DNA of 64,000 bases. Source: an uncultured Clostridia bacterium. Its GTDB lineage: Bacteria > Bacillota > Clostridia > TANB77 > CAG-508. The notes under the pieces were generated by a model that searched no databases, was not told the origin of the DNA, and saw only the letters and a program-made list of their open reading frames with translations. The translations under genes were made by a program, and so were the position numbers. How positions within the stretch are numbered: position 1 is the first letter of the stretch; every line of letters starts with the position of its first letter. The stretch covers positions 2,129 to 66,128 of the forward strand of contig CANQOW010000001.1 in assembly GCA_947625545.1 (NCBI GenBank), written 5' to 3'. Of this stretch, positions 6,422-45,742 are shown piece after piece.

Positions 6422-7690
6422 ATGAAGTACATTAATAGAATTGTAGATAAGGAAATAAAAGAAAAACTATCCATTATGGGAGCCATATATATAAAAGGTC
6501 CAAAATGGTGTGGTAAAACTACAAGTGCAAAACAAATTGCAAAAAGTATTTTAGAAATGCAAAATCCAGATTTACAAGAAAATTATATTCAACTTGCTAA
6601 TACAAAGCCTTCATTATTATTAGAAGGAGAAAAACCAAGATTAATTGATGAATGGCAATTAGCACCAAAATTATGGAATGCAGTAAGATATTCAGTAGAT
6701 AATATAGGACTTCCAAACCAATATATTCTTACAGGTTCTGCAACACCAACAGAAGATGATACATTACATAGTGGAGTTGGAAGATTTGCATTTATAACAA
6801 TGAAAACTATGACTTTATTTGAGAGTGGAGATTCAAATGGAAAAATATCATTAAAAGAAATACTTAAAGGAAATAAAAATATTGATGGAATTACAACAGA
6901 CTTAACTTATGAAAAAATTGCTTATGTACTTTGTCGAGGTGGTTGGCCTAATTCAATTAATTTAGAAAAAGAACAAGCATTAGAAATACCTAAAAATTAT
7001 ATTGATGTGCTATGTAGTTCAGATATTTCAAAAATTGATGGTGTAAAAAGAAATCCAGCATTAGCAAGAGCAATTTTAAAATCTTATGCAAGACAAATTT
7101 CAACTATTGATTCTAATCAATCTTTATTTGAAGATGTAAAAGCAAACTATACAGATATAAGTGAAAGAACAATTATAGATTATTTAGATGTATTAAAAAA
7201 ATTATATATAATTGAAGAAATAGAAGCATGGAATCCAAACATAAGAAGTAAAACTGCTATAAGAACATCACCTAAAAAAAGTATGATTGATCCTTCACTA
7301 GCAGTAGCAGTATTAGGATGTTCTCCAAAAGAAATTATGTTAGATATTAATACATTTGGATTATTATTTGAAAATTTAGTAAATAGAGATTTAAGTGTAT
7401 ATGTTAGTTCAATAGGTGGAACATTAAAACATTATAGAGATAGATATAACTTAGAATGCGACAATGTAATTCACTTTAATGATGGTAAATATGCTTTAAT
7501 AGAAACAAAATTAGGTACAACAAGAATAAAAGAAGCAGAAGAACATTTATTAACATTAAAAAAATTAATATTAGAAAATGAACCAAAAATAGGAGAACCA
7601 GAATTTTTAATGGTAATTACAGGTACAGATATGGCTTATACAACAGAAAATGGAGTAATGATAGTTCCAATAGGATGTTTGAAAGATTAA
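6422..7690 (+). CDS. AAA+ ATPase with C-terminal DUF4143 domain (paralog 1)
   Basis: Walker A GPKWCGKTT, ~420 aa. Architecture shared with ORFs 11133, 44414 and 45743. Confidence 0.75.
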   Translation: MKYINRIVDKEIKEKLSIMGAIYIKGPKWCGKTTSAKQIAKSILEMQNPDLQENYIQLANTKPSLLLEGEKPRLIDEWQLAPKLWNAVRYSVDNIGLPNQYILTGSATPTEDDTLHSGVGRFAFITMKTMTLFESGDSNGKISLKEILKGNKNIDGITTDLTYEKIAYVLCRGGWPNSINLEKEQALEIPKNYIDVLCSSDISKIDGVKRNPALARAILKSYARQISTIDSNQSLFEDVKANYTDISERTIIDYLDVLKKLYIIEEIEAWNPNIRSKTAIRTSPKKSMIDPSLAVAVLGCSPKEIMLDINTFGLLFENLVNRDLSVYVSSIGGTLKHYRDRYNLECDNVIHFNDGKYALIETKLGTTRIKEAEEHLLTLKKLILENEPKIGEPEFLMVITGTDMAYTTENGVMIVPIGCLKD

Positions 7691-10952: not shown

Positions 10953-11088
10953 TTATACCTGCAAAAAGTGGCATGTTTTTAAAATTTATACCTGCAAAAA
11001 GTGGCATGTTTTTAAAATTTATACCCGCAAAAAGTGGCAAATTTTTAAAAATTATACCTGCAAAAAGTGGCATGTTTTTATTGACTAT
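10953..11088. repeat. tandem direct repeats, 33-34 bp x 4 (tacctgcaaaaagtggcatgtttttaaaattta)
   Basis: Four contiguous copies. The last overlaps a TTGACT -35 and a TGtGATAAT extended -10 just upstream of the 11133 ATPase. Confidence 0.85.
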
Positions 11089-11132
11089 TCCTTTTTTATG
11101 TGATAATATTAGTTTATAAGGAGAGTAATTTT

Positions 11133-12437
11133 ATGAAAAGATTATTTGAAAATAAACTATTAGAATGGAAACAATCAGGGATGAAAAAGCCTTTAATGGT
11201 TGTTGGAGCAAGACAAATTGGAAAAACATATACAATTGAAAATTTTGCTAAGTCAAATTTTAAAGAATATCTATACTTTAACTTAGAAAAAAATTCAGAA
11301 ATAAAGGAAATCTTTGAAAAATCTATTGATGATGAAAAGATAATAAGTGAAATAGAACTATATCTAGGTAAAAAAATAGATATTGAGAATACAATATTAT
11401 TTTTTGATGAAGTTCAAGTAAGCGAAAACTTTATAGTTTCATTAAAATATTTTAATGAATCAGAAAAACCATACAAAATAATATGTGCAGGAAGTTTATT
11501 AGGTGTAAAAATAAATAGATTTAAGAGTTCATTTCCAGTAGGGAAAATTAGAATTGAATATATGTATCCTATGAATTTTGAAGAATTTTTAATAGCAACA
11601 GGAAATGAAATTTTACGAGAAAAAATAAAAGAATGTTATGAATCTATGTCTCCTATGCCTGAATATGCTCATAAACAAGCAATAGAATTATATAAAAAAT
11701 ATTTGTGCGTAGGTGGAATGCCAGAAGCGGTAAATAATTTAGTAGAAAATAAACTAGATATATTAAATTTCGATTCACATATTATTTCAGATATAAAAGA
11801 TATGTATATAGCAGATATGCAAAAATATGTAAAAAATAACTTTGAAAGTATTAAAATTGAAAAAATATATAAAAATATTCCAAGTCAATTAGCAAAAGAT
11901 AATAAAAATTTTAAATATAGTTTTATAGAAGAAACAGGTAGAAAAAGAAAATATGAAAGCTCTATTGATTGGTTAGTTGCTGCAAAAATGATTTTAATAA
12001 ACTACAATTCAAAAAGAATGGAAATACCATTAAAGGTATATATAAATGAAGATACATTTAAGTTATATTTAAGTGATGTTGGAATATTAACTAATATGAG
12101 TGAAGTTAAATTTCCAGATATAATGTTAGATAATACTTTTATATATAAAGGTGCTATAACAGAAAATTATGTTGCACAAGAATTAGTATCAAAACAAGAA
12201 TCATTATATTATTGGACATCAAATAGAAGTGCAGAAATAGACTTTGTTTTATATAGTGAAGAAGATGGAATAATTCCAATTGAAGTAAAAAGTGGAAGTA
12301 ATGTAAAGTCTGCAAGTTTAAATATGTATATTAATGAATTTCATCCAAAATATGCAATTAGATTTTCAACTAGAAATTTTGGATTCGAAAATAATATAAA
12401 ATCAATTCCTTTATATGCAGTATTTTGCATTAAGTAA
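11133..12437 (+). CDS. AAA+ ATPase with DUF4143 (paralog 2)
   Basis: Walker A GARQIGKTYT; same architecture as 6422. ATG at 11133 has an AGGAG RBS; the track start 11100 is an upstream extension. Confidence 0.75.
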   Translation: MKRLFENKLLEWKQSGMKKPLMVVGARQIGKTYTIENFAKSNFKEYLYFNLEKNSEIKEIFEKSIDDEKIISEIELYLGKKIDIENTILFFDEVQVSENFIVSLKYFNESEKPYKIICAGSLLGVKINRFKSSFPVGKIRIEYMYPMNFEEFLIATGNEILREKIKECYESMSPMPEYAHKQAIELYKKYLCVGGMPEAVNNLVENKLDILNFDSHIISDIKDMYIADMQKYVKNNFESIKIEKIYKNIPSQLAKDNKNFKYSFIEETGRKRKYESSIDWLVAAKMILINYNSKRMEIPLKVYINEDTFKLYLSDVGILTNMSEVKFPDIMLDNTFIYKGAITENYVAQELVSKQESLYYWTSNRSAEIDFVLYSEEDGIIPIEVKSGSNVKSASLNMYINEFHPKYAIRFSTRNFGFENNIKSIPLYAVFCIK

Positions 12438-12530: not shown

Positions 12531-13022
12531 ATGAATAAAATAATAATAAAAGTAATATTTGGAATAATGGTTTTAACGTGGATGATAACTGTATTTACTT
12601 TATCAAATGAACCAGCAAAAAAATCATCTAATACTAGTGGAAAAACAATAAGAATTATTATAAACATACTTCCAAATACTAGAAATATGGACGAAAATGA
12701 AAAAGAACAAATAGTATCAGATTTACAACCAATTACAAGAAAACTAGCACACTTTTCATTATATACATTAGGAGGAATATTAATATATAATTTTATTAAT
12801 GCTTTTAATATAGAGTTTAATAAAAAGTTTATATTTAGTTTTTTAATTGGTGGAATTTATGCTATTTCAGATGAATTCCATCAATTATTTATACCCGGAA
12901 GAAGCGGAGAAATAAGAGATGTATGTATAGATTCTAGTGGTGTTTTACTTGGAATTTTTATAATGATTGTGTTGATTAAATTAGGAGGAAAAATTGGAAG
13001 AAATAAGAGAGAAAATAGTTAA
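12531..13022 (+). CDS. VanZ-like family membrane protein
   Basis: 163 aa, 4 TM. The SDEFHQLFIPGRSGEIRDVCIDSSGV motif is typical of VanZ-like proteins. Confidence 0.7.
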   Translation: MNKIIIKVIFGIMVLTWMITVFTLSNEPAKKSSNTSGKTIRIIINILPNTRNMDENEKEQIVSDLQPITRKLAHFSLYTLGGILIYNFINAFNIEFNKKFIFSFLIGGIYAISDEFHQLFIPGRSGEIRDVCIDSSGVLLGIFIMIVLIKLGGKIGRNKRENS

Positions 13023-13389
13023 ATTTTTAACTAAAAAATATGAATTAGAAGCGATAATTATATTTGGAAGTTATGCAAGAAATACTCAAAATGAAGAAAG
13101 TGATATAGATATTGCAATTAAATTTGTAAAAAATGTAAATATTCAAGAATTAAAAATAGAGTTAGAAGATTTACTAAAAAAAGATATAGATTTAATAGAT
13201 TTAGATAAGATAGAAAATGAGGCATTTAGATATGAAATACTTATGACAGGTGAATTAATTTATGTAAAAGATCAATATAAATTTGATTTATATAAAATAG
13301 ATATGTTTAGAGAGTATTTTGAATTAAATGAAATGAGGCAAGATATTATAAACAACATAAAAAATGGAGGAGATATTTATGGAAAATGA
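12994..13389 (+). CDS. nucleotidyltransferase (MNT-type antitoxin)
   Basis: GSYARNTQNEESDIDIAI minimal nucleotidyltransferase motif. TTG start with a GGAGGA RBS. Overlaps the next gene. Confidence 0.75.
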   Translation: MEEIREKIVKFLTKKYELEAIIIFGSYARNTQNEESDIDIAIKFVKNVNIQELKIELEDLLKKDIDLIDLDKIENEAFRYEILMTGELIYVKDQYKFDLYKIDMFREYFELNEMRQDIINNIKNGGDIYGK

Positions 13390-13798
13390 AGGAGTATTAA
13401 TAAATAAGTATGAAATCATTGAAAGATGTATAAATAGAATAAATGAAGAATATGAAAATAATCCACAAAATTTAGATGATTATAGAAAAGTAGATGCAAT
13501 AGTATTAAATTTACAAAGAGCATGCGAAGCATGTTGTGATATAGCAAGTTATGTAGTTTCATCAAGAAAACTTGGAATACCTCAAATAAAAAGAGATGCT
13601 TTTATATTATTAGAAAAAAATAAATTAATAGATAGTAACACTTGTACAAAAATGAAAAATATGATAACTTTTAGAAATATTGCAGTACATGATTACAAAC
13701 AAATAGATGAAGATATTTTACAAGATGTAATAGAAAATGATTTAGAAGATTTAAAAGAGTTCGCAAGAATGATGATAAATTTAGATAGAAATTTGTAG
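13379..13798 (+). CDS. HepT-like (DUF86) toxin
   Basis: RNIAVHDY (Rx4HxY) DUF86 motif. 4-11 bp overlap with the upstream MNT gene. Confidence 0.8.
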   Translation: MENEGVLINKYEIIERCINRINEEYENNPQNLDDYRKVDAIVLNLQRACEACCDIASYVVSSRKLGIPQIKRDAFILLEKNKLIDSNTCTKMKNMITFRNIAVHDYKQIDEDILQDVIENDLEDLKEFARMMINLDRNL

Positions 13799-13925: not shown

Positions 13926-15818
13926 ATGAAATTAGCAGATAGATTAAGAAAATATAGAAGATATGCATTACTAATTATAGATATTATAATAATTGTATTA
14001 GCATATATAGGTTTACAAATATTTATAAGAGATACATTTAAATTAGATACAGCAATATTTAACAAAATAAGAAATACAATTATAATAGCAGTATTTGTAT
14101 ATTCAATAATATTTATTTTATTCAAATTATATAAAAATATAACTAGGTATGAAAGTGGAAAAGATTATTTAGTATACATTGCAGCATGCTTAATATCAAG
14201 TTTAGGGGTATCTTTAATTGGAACAGCATATAAAATTAATACATTAAATTTAAAACATAATATAGTAACAGCGCTAATAATAGCAATGGGGGTAGTTGGT
14301 TACAGAATAATTTTAAGAATAATATTAAACGAAGAGTTACCAATACCAAAAATTGAAGAAAAAGAAGAACAAAAAACAAAAAATTTATTAATAATAGGTG
14401 CAGGTTCAGCAACAAGAGATATAATAAAATCTATTAAAACAAAAATGAAAAATGAATATAATATAGTAGGAATAATAGATGATAATAAAGATAAATTAGG
14501 TCGTTGTATTGCAGGAATAGATGTAGTAGGCGATAGAAATGATATTATAAAAATATGTAAAAGAGAAAAAGTAGATGAAATATTTTTCTCAATATCAAAA
14601 ATAGATAAAAAAGATAGAAAAGATATAATAGAAAAATGTCAAAATACAGGTGCAAAAACTAGAATATTACCAAGTACAGAAGATTTAATAAAAAATAAAA
14701 CATTAATGGATAATTTAAGAGATATAGAAATAGAAGATATTTTAGGAAGAGAACCAATAAAATTAGATAATAATAATATAAGTGAATTAATAAATAATAG
14801 AATTGTATTGGTAACTGGTGGTGGAGGCTCAATAGGTTCAGAATTATGCAGACAAATAGCAAAATTTAATCCTAAACAACTTGTAATATTTGATATATAT
14901 GAAAACAATTTATATAATATAGAAATGGAACTAAGACAAAACTATTCAAATTTAGATTTAAAAGCAATAGTAGGAAGTGTTAGAGATAAAGCAAAACTAG
15001 AAAATTTATTTGAAACATATAAACCAGAATTAGTATTTCATGCTGCAGCACATAAACATGTTCCACTAATGGAAGTAAGTCCATTAGAAGCAATAAAAAA
15101 TAATGTATTTGGAACATATAATGTTGTAAATGCAAGCGATAAATATAAAGTAGAAAAATTTGTATTAATTTCAACAGATAAAGCAGTTAACCCTACAAAT
15201 ATAATGGGAGCAACTAAAAGAATTTGTGAAATGATAATACAAACAAAAAATAAAGTAAGTAACACAGAATTTGTTGCAGTTAGATTTGGAAATGTATTAG
15301 GAAGTAATGGTTCAGTAGTTCCACTATTTAAAAAACAAATTGAAAAAGGTGGACCAGTTACTGTAACACATAAAGATATTATAAGATATTTTATGACAAT
15401 ACCAGAAGCAGTACAATTAATATTACAAGCAATTACTTATGCAAACGGGGGAGAAATTTTTGTATTAGATATGGGTGAACCAGTTAAAATATATGATTTA
15501 GCAGTAAGTTTAATAAAATTATCTGGTTTAGAACCTAATGTAGATATTCCAATAGAAATAACAGGTTTAAGACCAGGCGAAAAATTATACGAAGAACTAT
15601 TAATGTCTGAAGAAGGATTACAAAAAACTGCACATAACAAAATATTTGTTGCAGAGCCAATAACATTAGAAATGAAAGAATTAGAAGAAAAATTAGCAAA
15701 ATTAAAAGAACTAATTAAAGACGAAAAAAATACAAAAGAAGATGTAAAAAAAGTTATTAAAGAAACAGTACCAACATTTATAGAACCAGAATATGCTAAT
15801 AAAATAAAAATAAAATAA
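13926..15818 (+). CDS. membrane-anchored UDP-GlcNAc 4,6-dehydratase (CapD/PglF/WbpM family)
   Basis: N-terminal 4 TM, Rossmann VLVTGGGGSIGSEL, Polysacc_synt_2-type SDR core. Confidence 0.85.
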   Translation: MKLADRLRKYRRYALLIIDIIIIVLAYIGLQIFIRDTFKLDTAIFNKIRNTIIIAVFVYSIIFILFKLYKNITRYESGKDYLVYIAACLISSLGVSLIGTAYKINTLNLKHNIVTALIIAMGVVGYRIILRIILNEELPIPKIEEKEEQKTKNLLIIGAGSATRDIIKSIKTKMKNEYNIVGIIDDNKDKLGRCIAGIDVVGDRNDIIKICKREKVDEIFFSISKIDKKDRKDIIEKCQNTGAKTRILPSTEDLIKNKTLMDNLRDIEIEDILGREPIKLDNNNISELINNRIVLVTGGGGSIGSELCRQIAKFNPKQLVIFDIYENNLYNIEMELRQNYSNLDLKAIVGSVRDKAKLENLFETYKPELVFHAAAHKHVPLMEVSPLEAIKNNVFGTYNVVNASDKYKVEKFVLISTDKAVNPTNIMGATKRICEMIIQTKNKVSNTEFVAVRFGNVLGSNGSVVPLFKKQIEKGGPVTVTHKDIIRYFMTIPEAVQLILQAITYANGGEIFVLDMGEPVKIYDLAVSLIKLSGLEPNVDIPIEITGLRPGEKLYEELLMSEEGLQKTAHNKIFVAEPITLEMKELEEKLAKLKELIKDEKNTKEDVKKVIKETVPTFIEPEYANKIKIK

Positions 15819-15844
15819 ATTTGAAAGGAAGTTTGATTTTAGTT

Positions 15845-16969
15845 ATGAGCGAAAAAATATTTTTGGCATCACCACATATGTCTGATGAAGGATATGAAAA
15901 AGAATATATTAAAGAAGCATTTGATACAAACTGGATAGCACCATTAGGAGAAAATGTAAATAAATTTGAAGAAGAAATTGCAAACTATGTTGGAGCACAA
16001 AATGCTGCTGCATTAACATCAGGAACAGCAGCAATACATATGGCTTTAAAAGCATTAGATGTAAAACAAGGAGATATTGTATTTTGTTCTTCATTAACAT
16101 TTTCAGCAACAGCAAACCCTATAATATACCAAAATGCAACACCAGTGTTTATAGATAGTGAAGAAGAAACATGGAATATGGATCCTGTTGCATTAGAAAA
16201 AGCATTCGAAAAATATCCAAATCCTAAAGCAGTTATTATTGTACATTTATATGGAATACCTGCAAAAATGGACGAAATAGTAAAAATATGTAAAGAACAT
16301 AATACACCACTTATAGAAGATGCAGCAGAAAGTTTAGGTGCTACATATAAAGGAAAACAAACAGGAACATTTGGAAAATACGGAGCATATTCTTTTAATG
16401 GAAATAAAATAATAACAACTAGTGGCGGAGGAATGTTAGTTTCTGATGATAAAGAAAAAATACAAAAAGTTAGATTTTGGATTACACAATCAAGAGAAAA
16501 AGAAAGATATTATGAACATAAAGAATTAGGATACAATTATAGAATGAGCAATATTGTAGCAGGAATTGGTAGAGGACAATTAAAAGTTTTAAATAAAAGA
16601 ATTGAACAAAAAACAGACATTTATAATAGATATAAAGAGGCATTTAAAGATATTGAAGAAATTGAAATGCAACCAACACTAGAAAATACAAAACCAAATT
16701 ATTGGTTATCTGTAATAACATTAAAGGAAACAAGTAAGGTTAAACCAATAGATATTATAGTAGCATTAGAAAAAGGAAATATAGAATCAAGACCAGTATG
16801 GAAACCAATGCATATGCAACCTGTTTTTGAAGATTGTGATTTTATAAAAGTTAAAGAAAAAGCAGTTTCAACAGATTTATTTGAAAGAGGAGTTTGCTTA
16901 CCTTCTGATACTAAAATGACTGTTGAACAACAAGAAAAAGTAATAAATGTAATTAAAAAATTATTCTAG
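15845..16969 (+). CDS. DegT/DnrJ/EryC1 sugar aminotransferase (PglE-like)
   Basis: PLP-dependent fold with a conserved Lys region (SFNGNKIITTSGGG). ATG at 15845 has an RBS; the track's 15821 start is TTG. Confidence 0.85.
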   Translation: MSEKIFLASPHMSDEGYEKEYIKEAFDTNWIAPLGENVNKFEEEIANYVGAQNAAALTSGTAAIHMALKALDVKQGDIVFCSSLTFSATANPIIYQNATPVFIDSEEETWNMDPVALEKAFEKYPNPKAVIIVHLYGIPAKMDEIVKICKEHNTPLIEDAAESLGATYKGKQTGTFGKYGAYSFNGNKIITTSGGGMLVSDDKEKIQKVRFWITQSREKERYYEHKELGYNYRMSNIVAGIGRGQLKVLNKRIEQKTDIYNRYKEAFKDIEEIEMQPTLENTKPNYWLSVITLKETSKVKPIDIIVALEKGNIESRPVWKPMHMQPVFEDCDFIKVKEKAVSTDLFERGVCLPSDTKMTVEQQEKVINVIKKLF

Positions 16970-16977
16970 GAGGAATT

Positions 16978-18282
16978 ATGTTAAATATAAAGACAGTTAG
17001 TATTATAGGTGCTAATGGAACAATGGGGTCGTTGATTTCTGCAATTATCGCAGGATTTGGAGATTGCAAAGTATATTTAATTAGTAGAAATAAGCAAAAT
17101 TCTATAGATGTAATAAATAAAGCAAAAAAATCTATAAGAAGTGATATTATTGAAAAAAATTTAATTCCAATAGATTATACTCAATTAAAAGATGCTGTTC
17201 AAGAATCTGATTGGATTTTTGAATCAATTATTGAAGATTATGATGCAAAATCTAAAATATATAAAGAAATTAATTTATATAATATAAATCATGCAATTAT
17301 AAGTACAGGAACTTCAGGATTGTCAATAAACAAATTGGCTGAAAATTTTTCAGAAGAAAATAAAAAAAGATTCTTAGGAATGCATTTTTTTAATCCACCA
17401 TATAGTTTAAATTTATGCGAAATTATTCCATCAAAATATACAGATAGTGCTTTAATTGAAAATTTAAGAAAATATTTAGAAAATATTTTAATAAGAAATA
17501 CAATTATTGTTAAAGATGAACCTGCATTTTTAGCAAATAGAATAGGTTTTGAATTTTTAAATGAAGTATTACAACTTGCTGAAAAATACAAAGATAAAGG
17601 TGGAATTGATTACATAGATAGTTTATTTTCAGGATATACTGGTAGAACAATGAAACCATTAGAAACAATTGATTTTGTTGGACTTGATGTTCATAAGGCT
17701 ATAGTAGATAATATATATAATAATACCAATGATGAATTTACTGAAAAATTTATTTGTCCAAATTTTTTAATTAAATTAATCGAATTAGGAAAATTAGGAA
17801 AAAAAACAAAAGAAGGATTATATCGTAAAGTAGTAAAAGATGGTATTGAAGAAAATCAAGTATACGATATAAACACTGGGGAATATAGAAAAATTAAAAA
17901 ATATGAGAACAATACTATAAATGAAATTATAAACTTAATAAAATTAGCAAAATATGAGCAAGCATATAAAATTTTAATAGAAAATACAGATGAAGATTTA
18001 CAATTAGTTGTGAAATTATTAACTACATATATAGTTTATTCATTAATTATGTCAAGCAAATATGCAGAAAGCTTAAATGACTGTGATAAAGCCATGGAGT
18101 TTGGATTTAATTGGTGTCCTCCTATTGCAATGAAAGAGTTAATAAAAGAAGTTGGTGCAATTAATAAAATAGTGAATAAATATATAGATAGTAAAATTAT
18201 TGAAAAATATAATGTTTATGATTTAATACAAAAATCTAATACAATTTATGATTATAGAAAATTCTTAAAGGCTACATATTAA
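16978..18282 (+). CDS. 3-hydroxyacyl-CoA dehydrogenase family protein
   Basis: N-terminal IIGANGTMGS NAD-binding motif and the HFFNPP 3HCDH signature. Confidence 0.75.
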   Translation: MLNIKTVSIIGANGTMGSLISAIIAGFGDCKVYLISRNKQNSIDVINKAKKSIRSDIIEKNLIPIDYTQLKDAVQESDWIFESIIEDYDAKSKIYKEINLYNINHAIISTGTSGLSINKLAENFSEENKKRFLGMHFFNPPYSLNLCEIIPSKYTDSALIENLRKYLENILIRNTIIVKDEPAFLANRIGFEFLNEVLQLAEKYKDKGGIDYIDSLFSGYTGRTMKPLETIDFVGLDVHKAIVDNIYNNTNDEFTEKFICPNFLIKLIELGKLGKKTKEGLYRKVVKDGIEENQVYDINTGEYRKIKKYENNTINEIINLIKLAKYEQAYKILIENTDEDLQLVVKLLTTYIVYSLIMSSKYAESLNDCDKAMEFGFNWCPPIAMKELIKEVGAINKIVNKYIDSKIIEKYNVYDLIQKSNTIYDYRKFLKATY

Positions 18283-18293
18283 GGAGTTGAACT

Positions 18294-19553
18294 ATGGAAA
18301 ATGTTTTAATATTAGGTGGAAGTCAAACTGATTTTGAAAGAAATTGGAAAAAAGAAGGAAAAGGATATGAAGCGCTTTTAAAAGAAGTTTTTGAAGATTC
18401 TATAAAAGAATGTAATATTAGCAAAGAAGAAATAGAAAGACTAAATAAAGAAAATAAGATAGAATGTTTTGTAGGAAATTTTATAGCAGAAAATTATATT
18501 GAACAAGGTCATTTAGGAGCATTACTAACTAATGTTGATAAATGTTTCTATGGAATTCCATCAGCAAGATATGAAGCAGCATGTGCATCAGGTTCAGTAG
18601 CAATTAGTTCAGCTATTTCGAAAATAAAAGCGAAAGAGATAGAAGTAGCAATTGTAATAGGTTTTGAATTAATGAAGACAGTTGATAGTAAAACATGTGG
18701 AGACTATTTAGGAAAAGCGGCTATTTATAATGAAGAAAGCAAAGGAATTGATTTACCTTTTCCAAAATTATTTGGAAGATTAGCAGATGAAACAATAAAA
18801 AAATATAATTTAGATAAGGAAAGATATTTAAATGCACTAGCAAAAATATCTGAAATTAATTATAACAATGCTAAAAGAAATCCAAATGCACAAACAAGAA
18901 AATGGTTTATGAACTTAAAAAATGCTCAAAATAGAAATACAGAAAATAATCCAAGTGTTGGTGGAATGTTGTCAGTCTCTGATTGCTCACAAGTAACAGA
19001 TGGAGCAGCAATGCTTATTCTTGTTTCAGAAGAATATGCTAAAAATAATTATGGTAGTATATACAAAACTTTACCAATAATAAAAGGAGAAGGACATAGA
19101 AATGCACCTATGAGATTTTCAGATAAAATTGAAGAAAGTAAAAATAATGAATATATTTTGCCATGGACAAGATTAGCAGTTGTAGAAGCATGTAACAAGT
19201 CTGGGGTAAGTGAAAACGAAATTGATTTTTTTGAAACTCATGATTGTTTCACATCAAGTGAATATGTGGCAATTTCATGTTTTGGAATAACAAAACCTGG
19301 TGAAGAATATATAGCAATAGAGAAAAATGAAATTTCATTTGAAGGGAAAAAACCAATTAATCCTAGTGGTGGTCTAATTGGCTGTGGGCATCCTGTTGGA
19401 GCAACTGGAGTAAGAATGATGTTAGATTTATATAAACAATTAACAGGAAAAGCAGGAGGTTATCAATTAAAAAATGTAAAAAATGGATTAATGCTAAATA
19501 TTGGTGGATCTGCTACAACAAATTATGTATTTATTGTAGGAAAGCGAGGATAG
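18294..19553 (+). CDS. thiolase-family condensing enzyme
   Basis: Active-site region EAACASGS and C-terminal thiolase signature [10 protein letters not shown]. Confidence 0.75.
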
Positions 19554-19555
19554 AA

Positions 19556-20185
19556 ATGAAAGAAAAAATTGTTATAGTTGGTGCGGGAGGTTTTGGTAGA
19601 GAAGTAGAATGGCTTCTTAATAGAGTAAACAGATTTAATATATTAGGCTATATTGATGACAATATAATAAAAGGAACACAAATAACAGATTTAAATGTAA
19701 TTGGTAACATTGATGATATATCAAAATTAGATGATGAAATAAATATTGTAATAGCTATAGGTAATAGTATAACAAGAAAAAAAATAGTAGAAAAAATAAA
19801 AAAAATAAAAAAAGTAAAATTTCCAAATATAATTGATCCTTCAGTTATAATTGATGAAAAATTTTTAAAAGGAGAGGGAAATATTATATGTGCAGGTACA
19901 ATTGCAACAGTTAATATAAAAATTAATAATTTTAATATTATTAATTTAGATTGTACAATAGGCCACGATGTTGAAGTTAAAGATTTTGTTACAATATATC
20001 CTAGCGTTAATATATCTGGTAACGTAATACTTAATAATTGTATTGAAATAGGTACAGGAACACAAATAATTCAAGGAAAAGTAATTAATGAAAATTCTAT
20101 TATTGGCGCTGGTAGTGTTGTAATAAGAGATATTGAATCAAATGTTACAGCAGTTGGTGTTCCTACAAGAATTTTACAGAAATAG
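19556..20185 (+). CDS. sugar N-acyltransferase, hexapeptide-repeat NeuD/PglD/WbpD family
   Basis: N-terminal IVGAGGFGREV Rossmann-like subdomain plus a left-handed beta-helix hexapeptide C-terminus. Confidence 0.85.
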   Translation: MKEKIVIVGAGGFGREVEWLLNRVNRFNILGYIDDNIIKGTQITDLNVIGNIDDISKLDDEINIVIAIGNSITRKKIVEKIKKIKKVKFPNIIDPSVIIDEKFLKGEGNIICAGTIATVNIKINNFNIINLDCTIGHDVEVKDFVTIYPSVNISGNVILNNCIEIGTGTQIIQGKVINENSIIGAGSVVIRDIESNVTAVGVPTRILQK

Positions 20186-20194
20186 GAGTGAAAA

Positions 20195-20839
20195 ATGTAT
20201 AGCAAATACATAAAAAGAATATTAGATTTTTTTATAAGTTTAATAGCATTTATAATATTATTGCCATTTATGTTTGTTCTATTTGTATTAGTTAGAGTTA
20301 AATTAGGAAAACCTGCTATTTATAGGCAAAATAGACCAGGAAAGAATGAAAAAATATTTACACTATATAAATTTAGAACTATGACAGAAGAAAAAGATGA
20401 AAATGGAAATTTATTACCAGATGAAAAAAGACTTACTAAATTTGGAAAAATGTTAAGAAGTACGAGTTTAGATGAATTACCAGAATTAATAAATATAATA
20501 AAAGGTGATATGGCTATAGTAGGACCTAGACCATTATTAGTAGAATATTTAGACTATTATAATGAAGAAGAAAAACATAGACATGATGTTAGACCAGGAC
20601 TTACAGGACTTGCACAAATAAGTGGAAGAAATGCAATCTCATGGGAAGAAAAATTTAATAAAGATATTGAATATATACATAATATTAGTTTTAAAATTGA
20701 TATAAAAATAATTTTAAAGACAATAATAAAAGTTTTTAAAAGAGAAGGAATAACTCAAAAAAATAATGCAACAATGGAAAATTTAAGAATTATAAGAGAA
20801 AAAAATAATGAAAAAAAAGAAGAGACTGTAAATGAATAA
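20195..20839 (+). CDS. undecaprenyl-phosphate sugar-1-phosphate transferase (PglC/WbaP C-terminal family)
   Basis: Single N-terminal TM and bacterial sugar transferase motifs (DELPQ-like DELPELINII, PGLTGLAQISGRN). Confidence 0.9.
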   Translation: MYSKYIKRILDFFISLIAFIILLPFMFVLFVLVRVKLGKPAIYRQNRPGKNEKIFTLYKFRTMTEEKDENGNLLPDEKRLTKFGKMLRSTSLDELPELINIIKGDMAIVGPRPLLVEYLDYYNEEEKHRHDVRPGLTGLAQISGRNAISWEEKFNKDIEYIHNISFKIDIKIILKTIIKVFKREGITQKNNATMENLRIIREKNNEKKEETVNE

Positions 20840-20917: not shown

Positions 20918-22006
20918 ATGAAAAAAATTATTATACTTTCTAACAGTAACAGTGGATTAATTAGTTTTAGACAAGAATTAATTGAACAACTAATTAAAGA
21001 TAAATATAAAGTATACATATCAGTGCCAGATGAAGAAGGAATAGATTTCTTTGAAAAAATGGGATGTATTGTAATAAAAACTAGGTTGAATAGAAGAGGT
21101 ACGAATCCAATTAAAGACTTTAATTTATTAAGATTTTATATTAAAATTATAAAAAATATTAAACCAGATGTAATTTTAACATATACTATAAAACCTAATA
21201 TTTATGGAGGGTTAGCATGTAAAATAAAAAAAATACCATATATTGTTAATATTACCGGTTTAGGTACGGCTATTGAAAAGAATAATTTATTATCAAAAAT
21301 TTTAATACAGATGTACAGAATTGCTTTAAAAAATGCAAAGTGTGTTTTTTGTCAGAATTTAGAAAATATGGAATTTTTAAAAAAGAATAAAATAGCAGTT
21401 GACGAATTAAAGTTAATTCCTGGTTCTGGTGTGAATTTAAGTAAATTTGAACAAAAAAAATATCCACAAAATGATAAAACAGAATTTATATTTATTGGAA
21501 GAATTATGAAAGAAAAAGGAATAGAACAATATTTGGAGATAGCAAAATATATTACATCAAAGTATGATAACATTATATTTAATATTGTTGGAAGATGTGA
21601 AGAAGATTACAAGAATATATTAAGCAGTTTACAAGAAGAAAACATTATAAATTATTATGGTGAACAAATGGATGTCAGACCATTTATTGAAAAATCACAT
21701 TGTACAATACATCCAAGTTATTATCCAGAAGGAATGTCAAATGTTTTATTAGAAAGTGCTGCTACTGGTAGACCAGTAATAACTACTGATAGACCTGGTT
21801 GTAGAGAAATTGTTGAGAATGGAAAAACAGGTTTTATTGTTAAACCCAAAGATATAGAATCTTTAAAAGAAGCAGTTGAAAAATTTATAAATTTGTCGTA
21901 TAATGAAAAAGTACAAATGGGAGTAGAAGGAAGAAAAAAAGTAGAAAAAGAGTTTGATAGAAATATTGTAATAGATGCTTATTTAAAAGAAATAAAAAAT
22001 ATATAA
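20918..22006 (+). CDS. GT4 glycosyltransferase
   Basis: GT-B fold; C-terminal E(X7)E region (EGMSNVLLESAATGRPVI). Confidence 0.85.
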   Translation: MKKIIILSNSNSGLISFRQELIEQLIKDKYKVYISVPDEEGIDFFEKMGCIVIKTRLNRRGTNPIKDFNLLRFYIKIIKNIKPDVILTYTIKPNIYGGLACKIKKIPYIVNITGLGTAIEKNNLLSKILIQMYRIALKNAKCVFCQNLENMEFLKKNKIAVDELKLIPGSGVNLSKFEQKKYPQNDKTEFIFIGRIMKEKGIEQYLEIAKYITSKYDNIIFNIVGRCEEDYKNILSSLQEENIINYYGEQMDVRPFIEKSHCTIHPSYYPEGMSNVLLESAATGRPVITTDRPGCREIVENGKTGFIVKPKDIESLKEAVEKFINLSYNEKVQMGVEGRKKVEKEFDRNIVIDAYLKEIKNI

Positions 22007-23332: not shown

Positions 23333-24304
23333 ATGAATACATATTTAGTTACTGGTGGAGCAGGTTTTATAGGTTCATCATTATGTAGTAAATTACTTGA
23401 ACAAGGAAATAAAGTAATTGCAATTGATAATTTTTGTGATTTTTATAATCCAAAAATAAAAGAAAATAATGTAAAGGAATTGCAAAATAATAAAAATTTT
23501 ACATTATATAGAAAAGATATAAGAGATAAAGAAGCATTAAAAGAAATCTTTAATGAAAATAAAATTGATGTTATAGTACATTTAGCAGCAATGGCAGGGG
23601 TAAGACCATCTATAGAAAATCCAATACTATATCAAGATGTTAATTGTATGGGAACTCAAAACATATTAGAAGAAATGAAATCACATAATATAAAAAATTT
23701 AGTTATGGCATCTTCAAGTAGTGTATATGGAAATTGCAAAGAAGTCCCATTTAAAGAAGATATGATAGTAGATTTTGCAATAAGTCCTTATGCAGCAACA
23801 AAAAAGGCAAATGAGGTAATGACACATGTATATCATAAATTATTTAATATAAATGTAATAATGTTAAGATTTTTTACAGTATATGGTCCAAAACAAAGAC
23901 CAGATTTAGCAATAAATAAATTTACAAGGTTAATGTTAAATAATGAAGAAATACCAATGTTTGGAGATGGAACAACATCAAGAGATTATACATATATAGA
24001 TGATATTGTAGATGGAGTAATAAAATCTTGTAAATATACATTAGAAAATGAAAATATATATCAAATATTAAATTTAGGAAATTCATCACCAATATCTTTA
24101 AAAGAAATGATAAATATTATAGCAAAAACTTTAAATGTTGAACCAAAAATAAAACAATTACCAATGCAGCCAGGAGATGTAGAAAGAACATATGCAGACA
24201 TTTCAAAAGCAAAAGAACTAATAGGATATGAGCCTAAAACTTCTTTTGAAGAAGGTATTAAAAAATTTGTTGAATGGTATATTAATAGTTATAAGAATAG
24301 GTGA
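23333..24304 (+). CDS. NAD-dependent nucleotide-sugar epimerase (UDP-glucuronate 4-epimerase-like)
   Basis: TGGAGFIGS Rossmann motif and YxxxK (YAATKKA), ~325 aa. Confidence 0.8.
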   Translation: MNTYLVTGGAGFIGSSLCSKLLEQGNKVIAIDNFCDFYNPKIKENNVKELQNNKNFTLYRKDIRDKEALKEIFNENKIDVIVHLAAMAGVRPSIENPILYQDVNCMGTQNILEEMKSHNIKNLVMASSSSVYGNCKEVPFKEDMIVDFAISPYAATKKANEVMTHVYHKLFNINVIMLRFFTVYGPKQRPDLAINKFTRLMLNNEEIPMFGDGTTSRDYTYIDDIVDGVIKSCKYTLENENIYQILNLGNSSPISLKEMINIIAKTLNVEPKIKQLPMQPGDVERTYADISKAKELIGYEPKTSFEEGIKKFVEWYINSYKNR

Positions 24305-24311
24305 AATTGAA

Positions 24312-25205
24312 ATGGATTATAAAAAAATAATAAAAAACAGAGAATACAGAATAAAAATACTAAATTTGTTAAGTTTTATTCCAGATAAAATTATGATAAA
24401 AATTCAGTATAGATTAAAAACAGGAAGAAAACTTAATTTAAAAAATCCTCAAAGGTTTAGTGAAAAACTTCAATTATATAAATTAAATTATAAAAATAAT
24501 TTAATGTGTAAATGTGTTGATAAATTTGAAGTTAGAGATTATGTAATGTCAAAAGGCTTAGGAAATATCTTAAATGAGATATATGGTGTATATGATAAAC
24601 CAGAAGATATTGATTTTGATAAATTACCAAATCAATTTGTCTTAAAAGATACTTTGGGGGGTGGAGGAAATTCAGTAATAATAGTTAAAGATAAAAACAA
24701 TGAAAATATATCTAAAATTATAGAACAGACAAAGAAATGGATTTCAACATCAGTTAATATTAAAAGCCCTGGAAGGGAAAGGGTTTATGACGGTAAAAAA
24801 CATCGTATAATTATTGAAAAATATCTTGATTATGAAGATAATGATTTACCAGACTATAAATTTTTTTGTTTTAATGGTAAACCATTTTGTTTATATTATA
24901 TTAATGGGAGAACAAAAAAAAGTGGCATTAATTTAGGAATTTTTGACTGTAACTTTAATCAAATGCCATATTATATAGCAGACAAAAATATTTTAAATAT
25001 AAATCCAAGTAAACCTGAAAATTTTAATGATATGTTAGAAATTGCAAAAAAGTTATCAGAAGTTTTTCCACATGTAAGAGTTGACTTATATAATATACAT
25101 GGAAAAATAATATTTGGAGAAATGACCTTTTTTGACGCTAGTGGATACCAAAAATTTTCTCCAGATAATTTTGATTACATACTAGGAGAGCAATTCAAAA
25201 TATAA
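24312..25205 (+). CDS. TupA-like ATP-grasp enzyme (predicted uronate-amide ligase) paralog A
   Basis: Shares NPQRFSEKLQ...KCVDKFEVRDYV...YKFFCFNGKP...GE(M/I)TF..SGY blocks with ORF 27492. ATG at 24312; the track start 24228 overlaps the upstream gene. Confidence 0.65.
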   Translation: MDYKKIIKNREYRIKILNLLSFIPDKIMIKIQYRLKTGRKLNLKNPQRFSEKLQLYKLNYKNNLMCKCVDKFEVRDYVMSKGLGNILNEIYGVYDKPEDIDFDKLPNQFVLKDTLGGGGNSVIIVKDKNNENISKIIEQTKKWISTSVNIKSPGRERVYDGKKHRIIIEKYLDYEDNDLPDYKFFCFNGKPFCLYYINGRTKKSGINLGIFDCNFNQMPYYIADKNILNINPSKPENFNDMLEIAKKLSEVFPHVRVDLYNIHGKIIFGEMTFFDASGYQKFSPDNFDYILGEQFKI

Positions 25206-27491: not shown

Positions 27492-28382
27492 ATGAATAAA
27501 ATAAATATAATATTAAAAAAAATAATATTGCGTTTGGCTTCAAAAAATATAATAAAAATGCAAGATAAAAAATTTATAGAATTAAAATATGAGGTTCAGA
27601 TAAATAAAAAATTAGATTTAGAAAATCCAAAAACTTTTAATGAAAAATTACAATGGCTAAAATTATATGATAGAAATCCTGAATATACAAATATGGTGGA
27701 CAAGTATGAAGCAAAAAAATACGTTTCAAAAAAAATTGGAGAACAATATATCATTCCAACTATAGGAATATATAAAAAATTTGAAGATATTAATTTTAAT
27801 GAACTACCAAATAAGTTTGTTATTAAACCTACTCATACATCAGGAAATGTTTTTATATGTAAAGATAAAGATAAAATTAATTATAAAAAATTAAAAAAAG
27901 AAATTAATAAATGGCTTAAAAGAAAGTATTTTTATATACATAGAGAATGGCCTTATAAAGATGTAAAACCTAGAATAATTATAGAAAAATATATGATTGA
28001 TAGATCTGGAAGTGAGTTAAAAGATTATAAGTTTTTTTGCTTTAATGGAAAAGTAAAAATGATATTAGTATGTTCTAATAGATTTAGTAATTTAAATAAA
28101 ACATTTTTTGATGAACAATGGACAATGTATAATTTTACCGAAGGGGGACATCAAAAAGAAGAAAAAATAGAAAAACCAAATAATTTTGAAAAAATGAAAG
28201 AAATAGCAGAAAAATTGTCGAATGATATAAGCTTTGTAAGAATAGATTTTTATGAAATTGATAGTAAAATATATTTTGGTGAAATTACATTTTATCCATC
28301 TGCAGGATATGAAAAATTTGAACCACAAGAATATGATGAATTTTTTGGAAATATGATAAAATTGCCAGATAAAAATATATAA
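27492..28382 (+). CDS. TupA-like ATP-grasp enzyme paralog B
   Basis: Same conserved blocks as 24312 (NPKTFNEKLQ, YKFFCFNGK, GEITFYPSAGY). Confidence 0.65.
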   Translation: MNKINIILKKIILRLASKNIIKMQDKKFIELKYEVQINKKLDLENPKTFNEKLQWLKLYDRNPEYTNMVDKYEAKKYVSKKIGEQYIIPTIGIYKKFEDINFNELPNKFVIKPTHTSGNVFICKDKDKINYKKLKKEINKWLKRKYFYIHREWPYKDVKPRIIIEKYMIDRSGSELKDYKFFCFNGKVKMILVCSNRFSNLNKTFFDEQWTMYNFTEGGHQKEEKIEKPNNFEKMKEIAEKLSNDISFVRIDFYEIDSKIYFGEITFYPSAGYEKFEPQEYDEFFGNMIKLPDKNI

Positions 28383-36812: not shown

Positions 36813-38042
<1,230 letters not shown>

Positions 38043-38118: not shown

Positions 38119-38202
<84 letters not shown>

Positions 38203-38293: not shown

Positions 38294-40078
38294 ATGAAAG
38301 AACTAGAATATCCATTTGACGTTAATTACATAATGAAGAACAAGAAAAAAATGAAAAAAGAACTTCTATTAAAACCGGGACTAATAGAAAAAAATATAGC
38401 AATATTAGGAGGCTCAACAACAAGTGAAATAAAAAATATGTTAGAATTATTTTTATTAAACTATGGAATAAAATCAAATTTCTATGAATCAGAATATAAT
38501 AAATTCTATGAAGATGCAATGTTTGGTAACGAAGAATTAGATAACTTTAAACCAGATATTATCTATATACATACAACAAATAGAAATATTATAGAATATC
38601 CTAATATGTATGACGACGAGAAAATTATTGAAGACAAACTAAACTATGAATATAATAAATTTTCAAAAATATGGGAAAAACTATTTGAAAAATTTAATGC
38701 AACAATAATACAAAATAACTTTGAATACCCATATTATCGTCTATTAGGAAATAAAGATGCAAGTGATATTCACGGAAGAACAAACTTTATAACAAGATTA
38801 AATCAAAAATTTTATGAATATGCACAAAATCATAAAAACTTTTTCATAAATGATATAAACTACGTATCTTCATGCTATGGCTTAGATAAATGGGCAAATC
38901 AATTCTATTGGCATATGTATAAATATGCTATGGAAGTACCTGCAATACCATATTTATCATTTAATATAGCAAACATAATAAAATCTATATATGGAAAAAA
39001 TAAAAAAGCATTTGTATTAGACTTAGATAATACTTTATGGGGAGGAATAGTTGGAGATGATGGCGTAGAAAATTTAGCGATAGGACCAGAAGTACCAAGT
39101 GGACAAGTTTATACAGAATTCCAAAATTATTTAAAAGAATATAAAGATTTAGGAATTATATTAAATGTAAATTCTAAAAATGAATATGAAAATGCAATAG
39201 CAGGTTTAAACCACCCAGCAGGAACATTAAAACCAGATGATTTTATCATAATAAAGGCAAATTGGAATCCTAAAAATCTTAATATAAAAGATATAGCAGA
39301 AGAATTAAATTTAGGAGCAGATAGTTTTGTTTTTGTTGATGATAATCCAGCAGAAAGAAAAATATGTAGAGAATATATAGATGGACTTTCAACACCTGAG
39401 ATAGATGTACCAGAAAATTATATAAAAATAATAGATAAAAATGCTTACTTTGAAATGACGAACTTTTCAAATGAAGATTTAAAGAAAAATGAATTATATA
39501 AAGATAATGCAAAAAGAAGTCAAATGATGGCAACATTTGATAATTATGATGATTATTTAAAATCATTGAATATGAAAGCAGAAATTTCTACTTTTAAACC
39601 AATTTACTTAGAAAGAATATCACAATTAAGTAATAAAAGTAATCAATTTAATTTAACAACAAAAAGATATTCATTAGCAGATATAGAAGCGGTTAACAAT
39701 GATGAAAACTATATAAAATTATATGGAAAATTAGAAGATATATTTGGAGATAATGGTGTTATAACAGTTGTAATAGGAAATATAAAAAATAATGATGAAT
39801 TACATATAGATTTATGGATAATGAGTTGTAGAGTATTAAAAAGAAATATGGAATTTGCAATGATGGACAAGTTAGTAGAAAAAGCAAAAGAAAAAGGGAT
39901 TAAAACAATATATGGTTATTATTATCCAACACTAAAAAACAAGATGGTAAAAGACTTTTATAGTACAACACAAGGATTTGAAGAAATATCTTGTGATAGT
40001 GAAGGAAATAAAATATATAAATTAGATATATCAAATGGATATACTAATAAAAATAATGTAATAGAGGTGTATGAATAA
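38294..40078 (+). CDS. FkbH-like domain / HAD-IIIC family protein with C-terminal acyltransferase-like domain (predicted ACP-loading enzyme)
   Basis: HAD motif I VLDLDNTLWGG and a HAD-IIIC-type core. C-terminal ~150 aa is GNAT-like. The stop overlaps the ACP start (ATGA). Confidence 0.65.
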   Translation: MKELEYPFDVNYIMKNKKKMKKELLLKPGLIEKNIAILGGSTTSEIKNMLELFLLNYGIKSNFYESEYNKFYEDAMFGNEELDNFKPDIIYIHTTNRNIIEYPNMYDDEKIIEDKLNYEYNKFSKIWEKLFEKFNATIIQNNFEYPYYRLLGNKDASDIHGRTNFITRLNQKFYEYAQNHKNFFINDINYVSSCYGLDKWANQFYWHMYKYAMEVPAIPYLSFNIANIIKSIYGKNKKAFVLDLDNTLWGGIVGDDGVENLAIGPEVPSGQVYTEFQNYLKEYKDLGIILNVNSKNEYENAIAGLNHPAGTLKPDDFIIIKANWNPKNLNIKDIAEELNLGADSFVFVDDNPAERKICREYIDGLSTPEIDVPENYIKIIDKNAYFEMTNFSNEDLKKNELYKDNAKRSQMMATFDNYDDYLKSLNMKAEISTFKPIYLERISQLSNKSNQFNLTTKRYSLADIEAVNNDENYIKLYGKLEDIFGDNGVITVVIGNIKNNDELHIDLWIMSCRVLKRNMEFAMMDKLVEKAKEKGIKTIYGYYYPTLKNKMVKDFYSTTQGFEEISCDSEGNKIYKLDISNGYTNKNNVIEVYE

Positions 40079-40320
40079 TGGAAAGAGAAGAAATTTTTGA
40101 AAGATTAAACGGTGTATTTAGAGATGTTTTTGATGACGATAGCATAGTTGTAACAGAAACAACAACTGCAAAAGATATTGAAGATTGGGACAGTTTAGAG
40201 CATATTAATTTAGTTGTTGCAGTAGAGCAAGAATTTGGAATTAAATTTAATATGGGTGAAGTAACAACAATGAAAAATGTTGGAGATATGGTAGATATAA
40301 TTATTTCGAGAATATCTTAA
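40078..40320 (+). CDS. acyl carrier protein
   Basis: 80 aa, acidic, DSL phosphopantetheine-attachment motif (EDWDSLEHINLV). Confidence 0.85.
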   Translation: MEREEIFERLNGVFRDVFDDDSIVVTETTTAKDIEDWDSLEHINLVVAVEQEFGIKFNMGEVTTMKNVGDMVDIIISRIS

Positions 40321-40397
40321 AATTATAATAATTTCACCAATTATAAAAATATTGTAATTGGTGATATTTATTTTTTTAATAAAATAGGGGGATAAAA

Positions 40398-41939: not shown

Positions 41940-41951
41940 GGAGGAGAAAAA

Positions 41952-42995: not shown

Positions 42996-43011
42996 AAGGA
43001 GAAATTTTAAA

Positions 43012-43507
<496 letters not shown>

Positions 43508-43515
<8 letters not shown>

Positions 43516-45607: not shown

Positions 45608-45621
45608 TGATTGTTCATCAA

Positions 45622-45706
45622 AAAATACGGATATGTGTAAAATTTGTCATATAAAAATTGCGGATATGTGAAAAATATATATTGAATAAATTACGGATAT
45701 GTGATA
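45622..45706. repeat. three copies of t(a/g)cggatatgtg spaced 33-34 bp
   Basis: Copies at 45625-45636, 45659-45670 and 45692-45703. The last abuts a TGtGATACAAT extended -10 before the 45743 ATPase. Confidence 0.75.
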
Positions 45707-45742
45707 CAATATATATAAAGATATCTTAAAGGAGGTACACAT

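Follow-up and report, generated by a model that had tools for sequence, protein, structure and literature searches.

Cassette layout

Six open reading frames (ORFs), all on the + strand, lie between positions 13926 and 20839 of a 64,000-nucleotide stretch (the window) of contig CANQOW010000001.1, from an uncultured Clostridia bacterium. They combine Pgl-like genes for a lipid-linked amino sugar with a gene pair encoding a 3-hydroxyacyl-CoA dehydrogenase (HCDH) and a thiolase. In order, the ORFs encode a PglF-like membrane-anchored UDP-N-acetylglucosamine (UDP-GlcNAc) 4,6-dehydratase (13926..15818, 630 aa, Pfam Polysacc_synt_2), a PglE-like pyridoxal phosphate-dependent sugar 4-aminotransferase (15821..16969, 382 aa from TTG, DegT_DnrJ_EryC1), the HCDH (16978..18282, 434 aa, 3HCDH_N and 3HCDH), an SCP2-type thiolase (18294..19553, 419 aa, NCBIfam NF004936 and Pfam Thiolase_C_1), a PglD/VioB-family left-handed β-helix sugar N-acyltransferase (19556..20185, 209 aa, PglD_N and TIGR03570) and a PglC-like small monotopic phosphoglycosyl transferase (20195..20839, 214 aa, Bac_transf). 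Profile and structure matches bear out the gene order and identities given, at the same coordinates, by the initial annotation, and the two motifs that it quoted are present: HFFNPP from residue 136 of the HCDH and GHPVGATG from residue 365 of the thiolase.

The genes are tightly packed, with intergenic gaps of 2-11 nt. Those flanking the HCDH and thiolase genes measure 8, 11 and 2 nt, counted from the aminotransferase to the PglD-like gene. From 12.4 to 25.4 kb the + strand of the window has no terminator-like site. Nearly all genes of the window are on the + strand and its G+C content is ~23%; a promoter scan of this AT-rich DNA was uninformative (111 sites against 108 expected), and no tRNA or Rfam matches were found in the 64 kb.

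Sugar-building enzymes

The PglF-like protein contains a full-length Polysacc_synt_2 domain (PF02719, E 5e-129) at residues 294-577, while its N-terminal part matches CoA_binding_3/PglD_N and its first ~130 residues are hydrophobic. This is the make-up of a membrane-anchored PglF/Gdr/WbpM-type dehydratase. The aminotransferase (DegT_DnrJ_EryC1, E 2e-103) has C. jejuni PglE as its best solved relative (1o61/4ztc, E 1.7e-100 to 1o61), and the LegC-family model scores 396 bits, slightly under its curated cut-off of 420. It is a DegT-family 4-aminotransferase of the PglE/LegC type, with a gluco or galacto configuration at C4 alike possible. Because the PglE alignment begins at residue 12, translation probably starts at ATG 15845 rather than TTG 15821. 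The PglC-like transferase (Bac_transf, E 2e-64) aligns over residues 1-196 with the N,N'-diacetylbacillosaminyl-1-phosphate transferase PglC (8e37/8g1n, E 9e-75). It belongs to the small monotopic phosphoglycosyl transferases of the PglC type and would place the finished sugar-1-phosphate on undecaprenyl phosphate.

The embedded dehydrogenase

Both Pfam domains of the HCDH score above cut-off (3HCDH_N, E 8e-34; 3HCDH, E 5e-14), and the protein matches positions 2-375 of Staphylococcus FadB. It is a member of a populous glycan-locus subfamily of 425-445 aa. In an alignment of 20 of these sequences S113/S116, H136, E148 and N187 are invariant and align with the HAD catalytic residues; the protein thus combines a HAD-family 3HCDH_N Rossmann domain and a 3HCDH C-domain with the catalytic Ser, His, Glu and Asn. 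A Foldseek search with the AlphaFold2 model (pLDDT, the predicted local distance difference test, 93) found Hbd/HAD over the first ~290 residues; for PaaH (3mog) and the dehydrogenase portion of trifunctional enzymes the match extends over ~400. Hence the extra C-terminus is modelled as a second C-domain, resembling those of PaaH and FadB.

The canonical GxGxxG NAD-binding loop and the acidic residue after β2 are absent from the HCDH. Its dinucleotide loop reads GANGTMG, with one extra residue, and S36 occupies the usual Asp position and is followed by a near-invariant R37. The loop and the S36-R37 pair hint at a possible preference for NADPH, which would fit a biosynthetic reductase. We predict that the HCDH is an acetoacetyl-CoA reductase yielding (S)-3-hydroxybutyryl-CoA. 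HAD-family enzymes yield the S enantiomer, so the predicted acyl group is most simply (S)-3-hydroxybutyryl.

The thiolase

The NCBIfam model NF004936 'acetyl-CoA acetyltransferase' scores 538.8 bits on the thiolase, against a cut-off of 375. Its best Pfam match is Thiolase_C_1, with Thiolase_N and Thiolase_C weak, and its best solved relatives, at ~40% identity, are the trypanosomatid SCP2-thiolases 4bi9/3zbg (E 1e-50, HDCF loop aligned). Cys97 (within ACASG), H316-D-C318-F and G365-H366-P are all present, and the last loop reads NIGGS, lacking the CxG Cys of classical thiolases. The enzyme therefore has the residues of an SCP2-type thiolase, namely the CxS Cys, the GHP His and an HDCF Cys in place of the C-terminal CxG. 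All 17 related-locus thiolases checked have both HDCF and GHP. By these features the enzyme belongs to the SCP2/Thiolase_C_1 class and not to the classical biosynthetic ThlA/PhaA, and it is predicted to act as an acetyl-CoA C-acetyltransferase making acetoacetyl-CoA. The family is large, with at least 4988 clusters at E <= 1e-100. Among plasmid sequences the only matches were thiolases from Cupriavidus, 39% identical and without informative context.

The PglD-like acyltransferase

PglD_N was detected in the acyltransferase with E 1e-16, and TIGR03570 (NeuD/PglB/VioB) scores 193 bits against a cut-off of 160.8. Among solved structures it is closest to VioB of A. baumannii (7txp, E 1e-41) and WeeI (4m9c, 1e-28); PglB-ATD (4m98, 9e-21) and C. 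jejuni PglD (2e-8) are weaker matches. The catalytic His is H137, within an invariant NLxCTIGHD, and the protein is a left-handed β-helix N-acyltransferase with a PglD_N domain. Its family suggests that it acts on the C4 amino group, and the cassette context argues for a donor other than acetyl-CoA at N-4.

The pair recurs beside acyltransferases

HCDH and thiolase homologues were traced to their contigs and these were annotated, the loci being retrieved without reference to the acyltransferase. This thiolase lies directly 3' of the HCDH in every locus long enough to tell. An acyltransferase gene adjoins the pair in 17 of 18 distinct loci, and these neighbours fall into five acyltransferase classes belonging to at least two amino-sugar pathways. 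A PglD-like neighbour is found in the window and in loci L001, L005, L011, L012, L016, L018, L091 and L092, with Bacillus sp. 1P10SD (L005; CP154847, around 799.6-816.9 kb), Thomasclavelia (L018), Enterococcus cecorum (L091) and Lachnoclostridium phocaeense (L092) among the hosts of this Pgl-type arrangement. The gene order of the L091-type locus is PglF-DegT-PglD-HCDH-thiolase-PglC. In L002, L006, L088 and L090 the neighbour is a 299-aa WbpD-like hexapeptide transferase inside a WbpB/WbpE-like 3-amino-sugar set. The remaining classes are a GNAT (L008), an Acyl_transf_3 protein (L009, also L090) and a small hexapeptide transferase (L013, L015). The pair, for whose insertion the initial annotation had suggested a synteny search, recurs next to acyltransferase genes in many Firmicute glycan loci.

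Across loci the thiolase is better conserved (56-87% identity to the window) than the HCDH (36-69%). Among the matches listed, the pair occurs in glycan loci of Enterococcus, Bacillus, Lachnospiraceae, Clostridia, Coprobacillaceae/Thomasclavelia and a metagenome-assembled genome (MAG) labelled Prevotellaceae. A comparison with L002 is informative: its PglF, PglE and PglC are 72%, 78% and 70% identical to those of the window, whereas its PglD, which is not next to the pair, is only 33% identical. In L001, where the pair is present, the acyltransferase is 67% identical to that of the window. Hence the acyltransferase and the pair were exchanged together, as one unit. Genes for crotonase, acyl-CoA dehydrogenase (Bcd) or Etf were found beside the pair in none of the loci examined, suggesting that the pathway stops at the 3-hydroxyacyl-CoA.

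Two variations on this arrangement were seen. In L092 (LT635479.1, 4306-7986), whose cassette is equivalent in other respects, insertion of an ISL3-family transposase splits the HCDH into pieces of 91 and 314 aa and the thiolase is intact. In L013 (Erysipelotrichaceae bacterium, ~62% G+C) and L015 ('bacterium') the pair lies outside an obvious glycan locus. Its neighbours there encode a thiamin pyrophosphokinase, a phosphorylase-family protein (PNP_UDP_1) and small hexapeptide transferases resembling Maa/LacA, of which there are one or two; here the pair may serve a non-glycan acylation.

A proposed pathway with its own acyl donor

From the enzyme families we propose that the cassette probably makes a lipid-linked 2-acetamido-4-acylamino-2,4,6-trideoxyhexose of the bacillosamine type, its 4-N-acyl group being most likely (S)-3-hydroxybutyryl. 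The PglF-like enzyme would convert UDP-GlcNAc to the 4-keto-6-deoxy sugar, which the PglE-like enzyme would aminate at C4. In parallel, the SCP2-type thiolase would condense two acetyl-CoA to acetoacetyl-CoA, and the HAD-family dehydrogenase would reduce this to (S)-3-hydroxybutyryl-CoA, probably with NADPH, pulling the unfavourable condensation forward. The PglD/VioB-family transferase would then use (S)-3-hydroxybutyryl-CoA as the donor for the 4-amino group. Transfer of the sugar-1-phosphate to undecaprenyl phosphate by the PglC-like enzyme would open a Wzy-type repeat unit, and downstream glycosyltransferases, an EpsG-like polymerase and an LCP ligase would complete the polysaccharide.

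The comparative evidence strongly supports the view that the pair supplies a donor to the neighbouring acyltransferase, which is much the best reading of these loci. The initial annotation had the pair feed 3-hydroxybutyryl-CoA to the PglD-like enzyme; the linkage in 17 of 18 loci upholds the supply part of that proposal, while the 3-hydroxybutyryl identity, its stereochemistry and the N-4 acceptor stand as predictions drawn from family membership and context.

Several observations weigh against this interpretation. In one of the 18 loci (L010) the pair has no neighbouring acyltransferase. SCP2-type thiolases are better known for thiolysis than for synthesis, and the chain length and branching of the thiolase product are not readable from sequence. 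When metagenomes were scanned with aligned acyltransferases from pair-carrying loci, 80 loci were obtained, 45 of them with flank enough to decide; among these relatives, 45-57% identical, the pair is present in 20 and absent in 25. Pair-associated and pair-free acyltransferases intermix at ~55% identity, and no alignment column separates the two groups in the 45 metagenome loci compared; no signature of acyl specificity was found in the enzyme. The pair-free relatives may be acetyltransferases with easily switched specificity, or promiscuous enzymes; alternatively, their hosts may take 3-hydroxybutyryl-CoA from butyrate metabolism.

Fine-scale clustering by pair status was also considered as evidence on specificity. 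The nearest neighbour of an acyltransferase has the same pair status in 42 of 55 cases, compared to 27±4 under permutation. This clustering can be explained by relatedness and was rejected as an argument in either direction.

The thiolase and HCDH could deliver a different donor to the same transferase: acetoacetyl-CoA, 3-hydroxyvaleryl- or 2-methyl-3-hydroxybutyryl-CoA formed by propionyl-CoA condensation, or a longer 3-hydroxyacyl-CoA from a fatty-acid-derived ketoacyl-CoA. SCP2-type thiolases in general accept branched and longer 3-ketoacyl-CoAs, the sequence does not fix the chain length, and the modest identity of this thiolase to its solved relatives allows for such substrates. We consider a different donor unlikely, given that the thiolase scores above the cut-off of an acetyl-CoA acetyltransferase equivalog and that the pair is not accompanied by an acyl-CoA ligase gene or any other gene for chain supply. 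The keto form is an unlikely end product because the HCDH is always present. Furthermore, 3-hydroxybutyryl is the hydroxyacyl group named on N-acylated amino sugars in the papers cited here (PMC9676051, PMC4869667, PMC7685785).

Alternatively, a short 3-hydroxyacyl-CoA might be made as proposed and placed elsewhere on the polymer, for example by the Acyl_transf_3 protein encoded at 36813-38042, with the PglD-like enzyme simply acetylating its sugar. VioB, the closest solved relative of that enzyme, is deposited as an acetyltransferase, and this point, like the occurrence of close PglD-like relatives without the pair, speaks for such an arrangement, as do the Acyl_transf_3 genes adjoining the pair in L009 and L090 and the further acyl-modification genes downstream in the window. 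However, the pair sits tightly between the genes for the aminotransferase and the PglD-like enzyme and the Acyl_transf_3 gene is 17 kb off, the presence of the pair co-varies with the acyltransferase and not with the rest of the Pgl cassette, and the immediate neighbour in most loci is an N-acyltransferase of an amino-sugar pathway. Placement on another acceptor is accordingly judged rather improbable.

That the pair represents ordinary central-metabolism genes of the butyrate or ketone-body type, lying by chance inside a polysaccharide locus, is very improbable: both proteins do belong to large fatty-acid metabolism families, but the comparative results leave almost no room for a chance passenger, as the pair recurs in glycan loci from Enterococcus to the Prevotellaceae-labelled MAG, has no crotonase, Bcd or Etf gene beside it in any of them, and consists of distinct subfamilies (the 425-445 aa HCDH and the HDCF thiolase at 56-87% identity), the FadB-like outgroup matches being ~30% identical and, among the matches listed, from Bacteroidota and other phyla.

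Conserved frameshifts in related thiolase genes

The thiolase genes of three related lineages (L002/3/4, L006/7 and L088/9, six assemblies in all) can be read through only after skipping two single C nucleotides. The first follows codon 8, in the context 'TTA GGR C GGA AGY', and the second falls inside GHPV|GATG, in the context 'CCN GTT C GGA GCN'. The thiolase gene starts at 9293 in L002 (extra C at 9317 and 10395), at 9299 in L006 (9323 and 10401) and at 8305 in L088 (8329 and 9407). Each site reads CGG in the zero frame and GGA in the +1 frame. Ahead of the first site, the upstream frame has a good ribosome-binding site and an ATG, and its 8-residue leader, MEKVYVLG, is conserved. In the neighbouring genes no in-frame CGG was found among ~4,800 codons of L002, ~5,000 of L006 and ~11,500 of the window; these are small samples, and the zero counts are consistent with a very rare codon.

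With the two Cs removed, all three thiolases are full length (417-420 aa). Pairwise comparison of the corrected genes gives a proportion of synonymous differences (pS) of 0.58-0.65 and of nonsynonymous differences (pN) of ~0.097, equally low after the second site, for a pN/pS of ~0.15. The thiolase is under purifying selection despite its two conserved frameshifts. The thiolase genes of L090 and the window are intact, without the extra Cs.

A pseudogene or assembly error was considered for the split genes of L002, L006 and L088 and was rejected on the identical insertions in three lineages and six assemblies and on the pN/pS of ~0.15 at near-saturated pS. The sequence pattern is probably one of double programmed +1 frameshifting at a hungry CGG codon rather than decay. 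We know of no description of translational control of glycan chemistry by such frameshifts. As a tentative extension, it is possible that Firmicutes widely use the pair as a cartridge for acyl donors, moved by horizontal transfer and set beside different N- and O-acyltransferases of at least two amino-sugar pathways. It might then diversify the acylation of surface glycans independently of central metabolism, with its output in some lineages throttled by the two programmed frameshifts at very rare CGG codons in the thiolase gene.

Relation to known systems

A 4-N-(S)-3-hydroxybutanoyl-QuiNAc4N is a natural sugar of A. baumannii, with the genes qhbC/qhbB/gdr (PMC9676051, PMC3628348). That module is similar to the window cassette in its Gdr/PglF-type dehydratase, 4-aminotransferase, PglD/WeeI-family N-4 acyltransferase and small initiating transferase. 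It differs in having no donor-supply genes, hence its acyl-CoA must come from general metabolism, whereas the cassette adds the thiolase and HCDH in a Gram-positive host. For QhbC, the comparison with the window transferase covers the related structure of WeeI (4m9c, E 1e-28). FdhC (E. coli O103, Hafnia alvei) and QdhC (Acinetobacter) are 3-hydroxybutanoyl transferases for Fuc3N/Qui3N(R3Hb) (PMC4869667). As proposed for the window, they N-acylate an amino sugar with 3-hydroxybutanoyl and are encoded in surface polysaccharide loci; unlike the reaction proposed here, theirs concerns the 3-amino group of dTDP sugars and the R enantiomer, and no in-cluster supply genes are reported.

In saying that this acyl group seldom has an assigned genetic basis, the initial annotation therefore went too far, as the 3-hydroxybutanoyl transferases QhbC, FdhC and QdhC have been assigned (PMC9676051, PMC4869667). 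What appears to lack an assignment so far is a dedicated donor-supply step, not the transferase. The predicted sugar and its type of transferase are already known, while the embedded supply module appears to be undescribed: a full-text search, which covers part of the literature, found no description of a thiolase and HCDH in a glycan locus, and the E. cecorum capsule paper makes no mention of them.

All four enzyme types of the C. jejuni PglF/PglE/PglD/PglC route to undecaprenyl diphosphate-linked N,N'-diacetylbacillosamine are present in the window. The differences are that the window acyltransferase is closer to VioB than to PglD and that two genes are inserted; in addition, the C. jejuni pathway serves N-linked protein glycosylation and the window cassette lies in a Wzy-type polysaccharide context. 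A conceptual precedent is antABCD of Bacillus anthracis: this amino-sugar operon includes an enzyme of acyl-CoA metabolism, the enoyl-CoA hydratase AntA, which makes the unusual hydroxyacyl donor for the hexapeptide N-acyltransferase AntD. The anthrose operon differs in its donor (3-hydroxy-3-methylbutyryl-CoA from leucine catabolism), in using a hydratase and in its dTDP-linked sugar.

Clostridial Thl-Hbd and PhaA-PhaB likewise use a thiolase followed by an NAD(P)H-dependent reductase, and the HCDH matches Hbd in fold and catalytic residues. In contrast to these systems, with their classical Cys-His-Cys thiolases, the window has an SCP2-type HDCF thiolase, an HCDH with a second C-terminal domain and an altered dinucleotide loop, and no downstream crotonase/Bcd or polyhydroxyalkanoate synthase genes.

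Non-acetyl N-acyl groups on surface sugars alter antigenicity, phage and lectin recognition and vaccine epitopes, and glycan-locus typing currently infers acyl groups from the transferase alone. If the proposal is right, the two-gene supply module would mark genomes with hydroxyacylated glycans in a simple way, both among gut Firmicutes and in Enterococcus cecorum, a poultry pathogen. The source of the donor in non-butyrogenic bacteria would likewise be explained, and the module would offer a compact cassette for glyco-engineering 3-hydroxybutyrylated bacillosamine. As a culturable pathogen that carries the pair, E. cecorum makes the supply claim directly testable.

Genomic surroundings

The region around the cassette is very large and of the Gram-positive cell-surface glycan type. 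Genes for an LCP ligase, sortases and VanZ lie upstream, as does a nucleotidyltransferase/HepT pair. The latter, at 12994-13798 and immediately 5' of the PglF-like gene, consists of a Polbeta/MNT nucleotidyltransferase and a HepT-like RNase, a combination typical of toxin-antitoxin systems. Downstream, a GT4 glycosyltransferase (20918..22006, + strand, Glycos_transf_1 and Glyco_trans_4_2) is context outside the sugar-nucleotide cassette; a GT4 48% identical to its product lies directly 3' of the equivalent cassette in L018, and it probably performs the next step on the lipid-linked sugar. Genes for a UDP-glucose dehydrogenase, an epimerase, two TupA-like ATP-grasp proteins, the EpsG-like polymerase, glycosyltransferases, PGA_cap and Acyl_transf_3 proteins are also located downstream. 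The TupA-like ATP-grasp genes (24228-25205 and 27492-28382) adjoin those for UDP-glucose dehydrogenase and epimerase, an arrangement suggestive of amino-acid amidation of uronic acids in the same polymer.

Further downstream, 38294-44242 holds a second, different acyl-decoration cassette, comprising genes for an FkbH-domain protein, an 80-aa carrier-protein-like ORF (40078-40320), a DltB-like MBOAT, an unassigned membrane-anchored protein of 347 aa, a MaoC dehydratase and an SDR reductase. Perfect (AC)n tracts occur in this 23% GC DNA at 36854-36881 (14 copies), 38148-38189 (21) and 43044-43072 (14.5). Two of these are in the 5' coding ends of the Acyl_transf_3 gene (36813-38042) and the MaoC-dehydratase gene (43012-43515), where they encode HTHTHTH runs; the other lies between genes, 5' of the FkbH-domain gene at 38294. 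These tracts resemble slipped-strand switches for phase variation of acyl-modification genes. The glycan region also contains four scattered paralogues of an AAA_14/DUF4143 ATPase gene (6422-7690, 11100-12437, 44414-45607 and 45743-47095), two of them preceded by 33-bp tandem repeats at 10953-11080 and 45620-45717 (3.9 and 3.0 copies).

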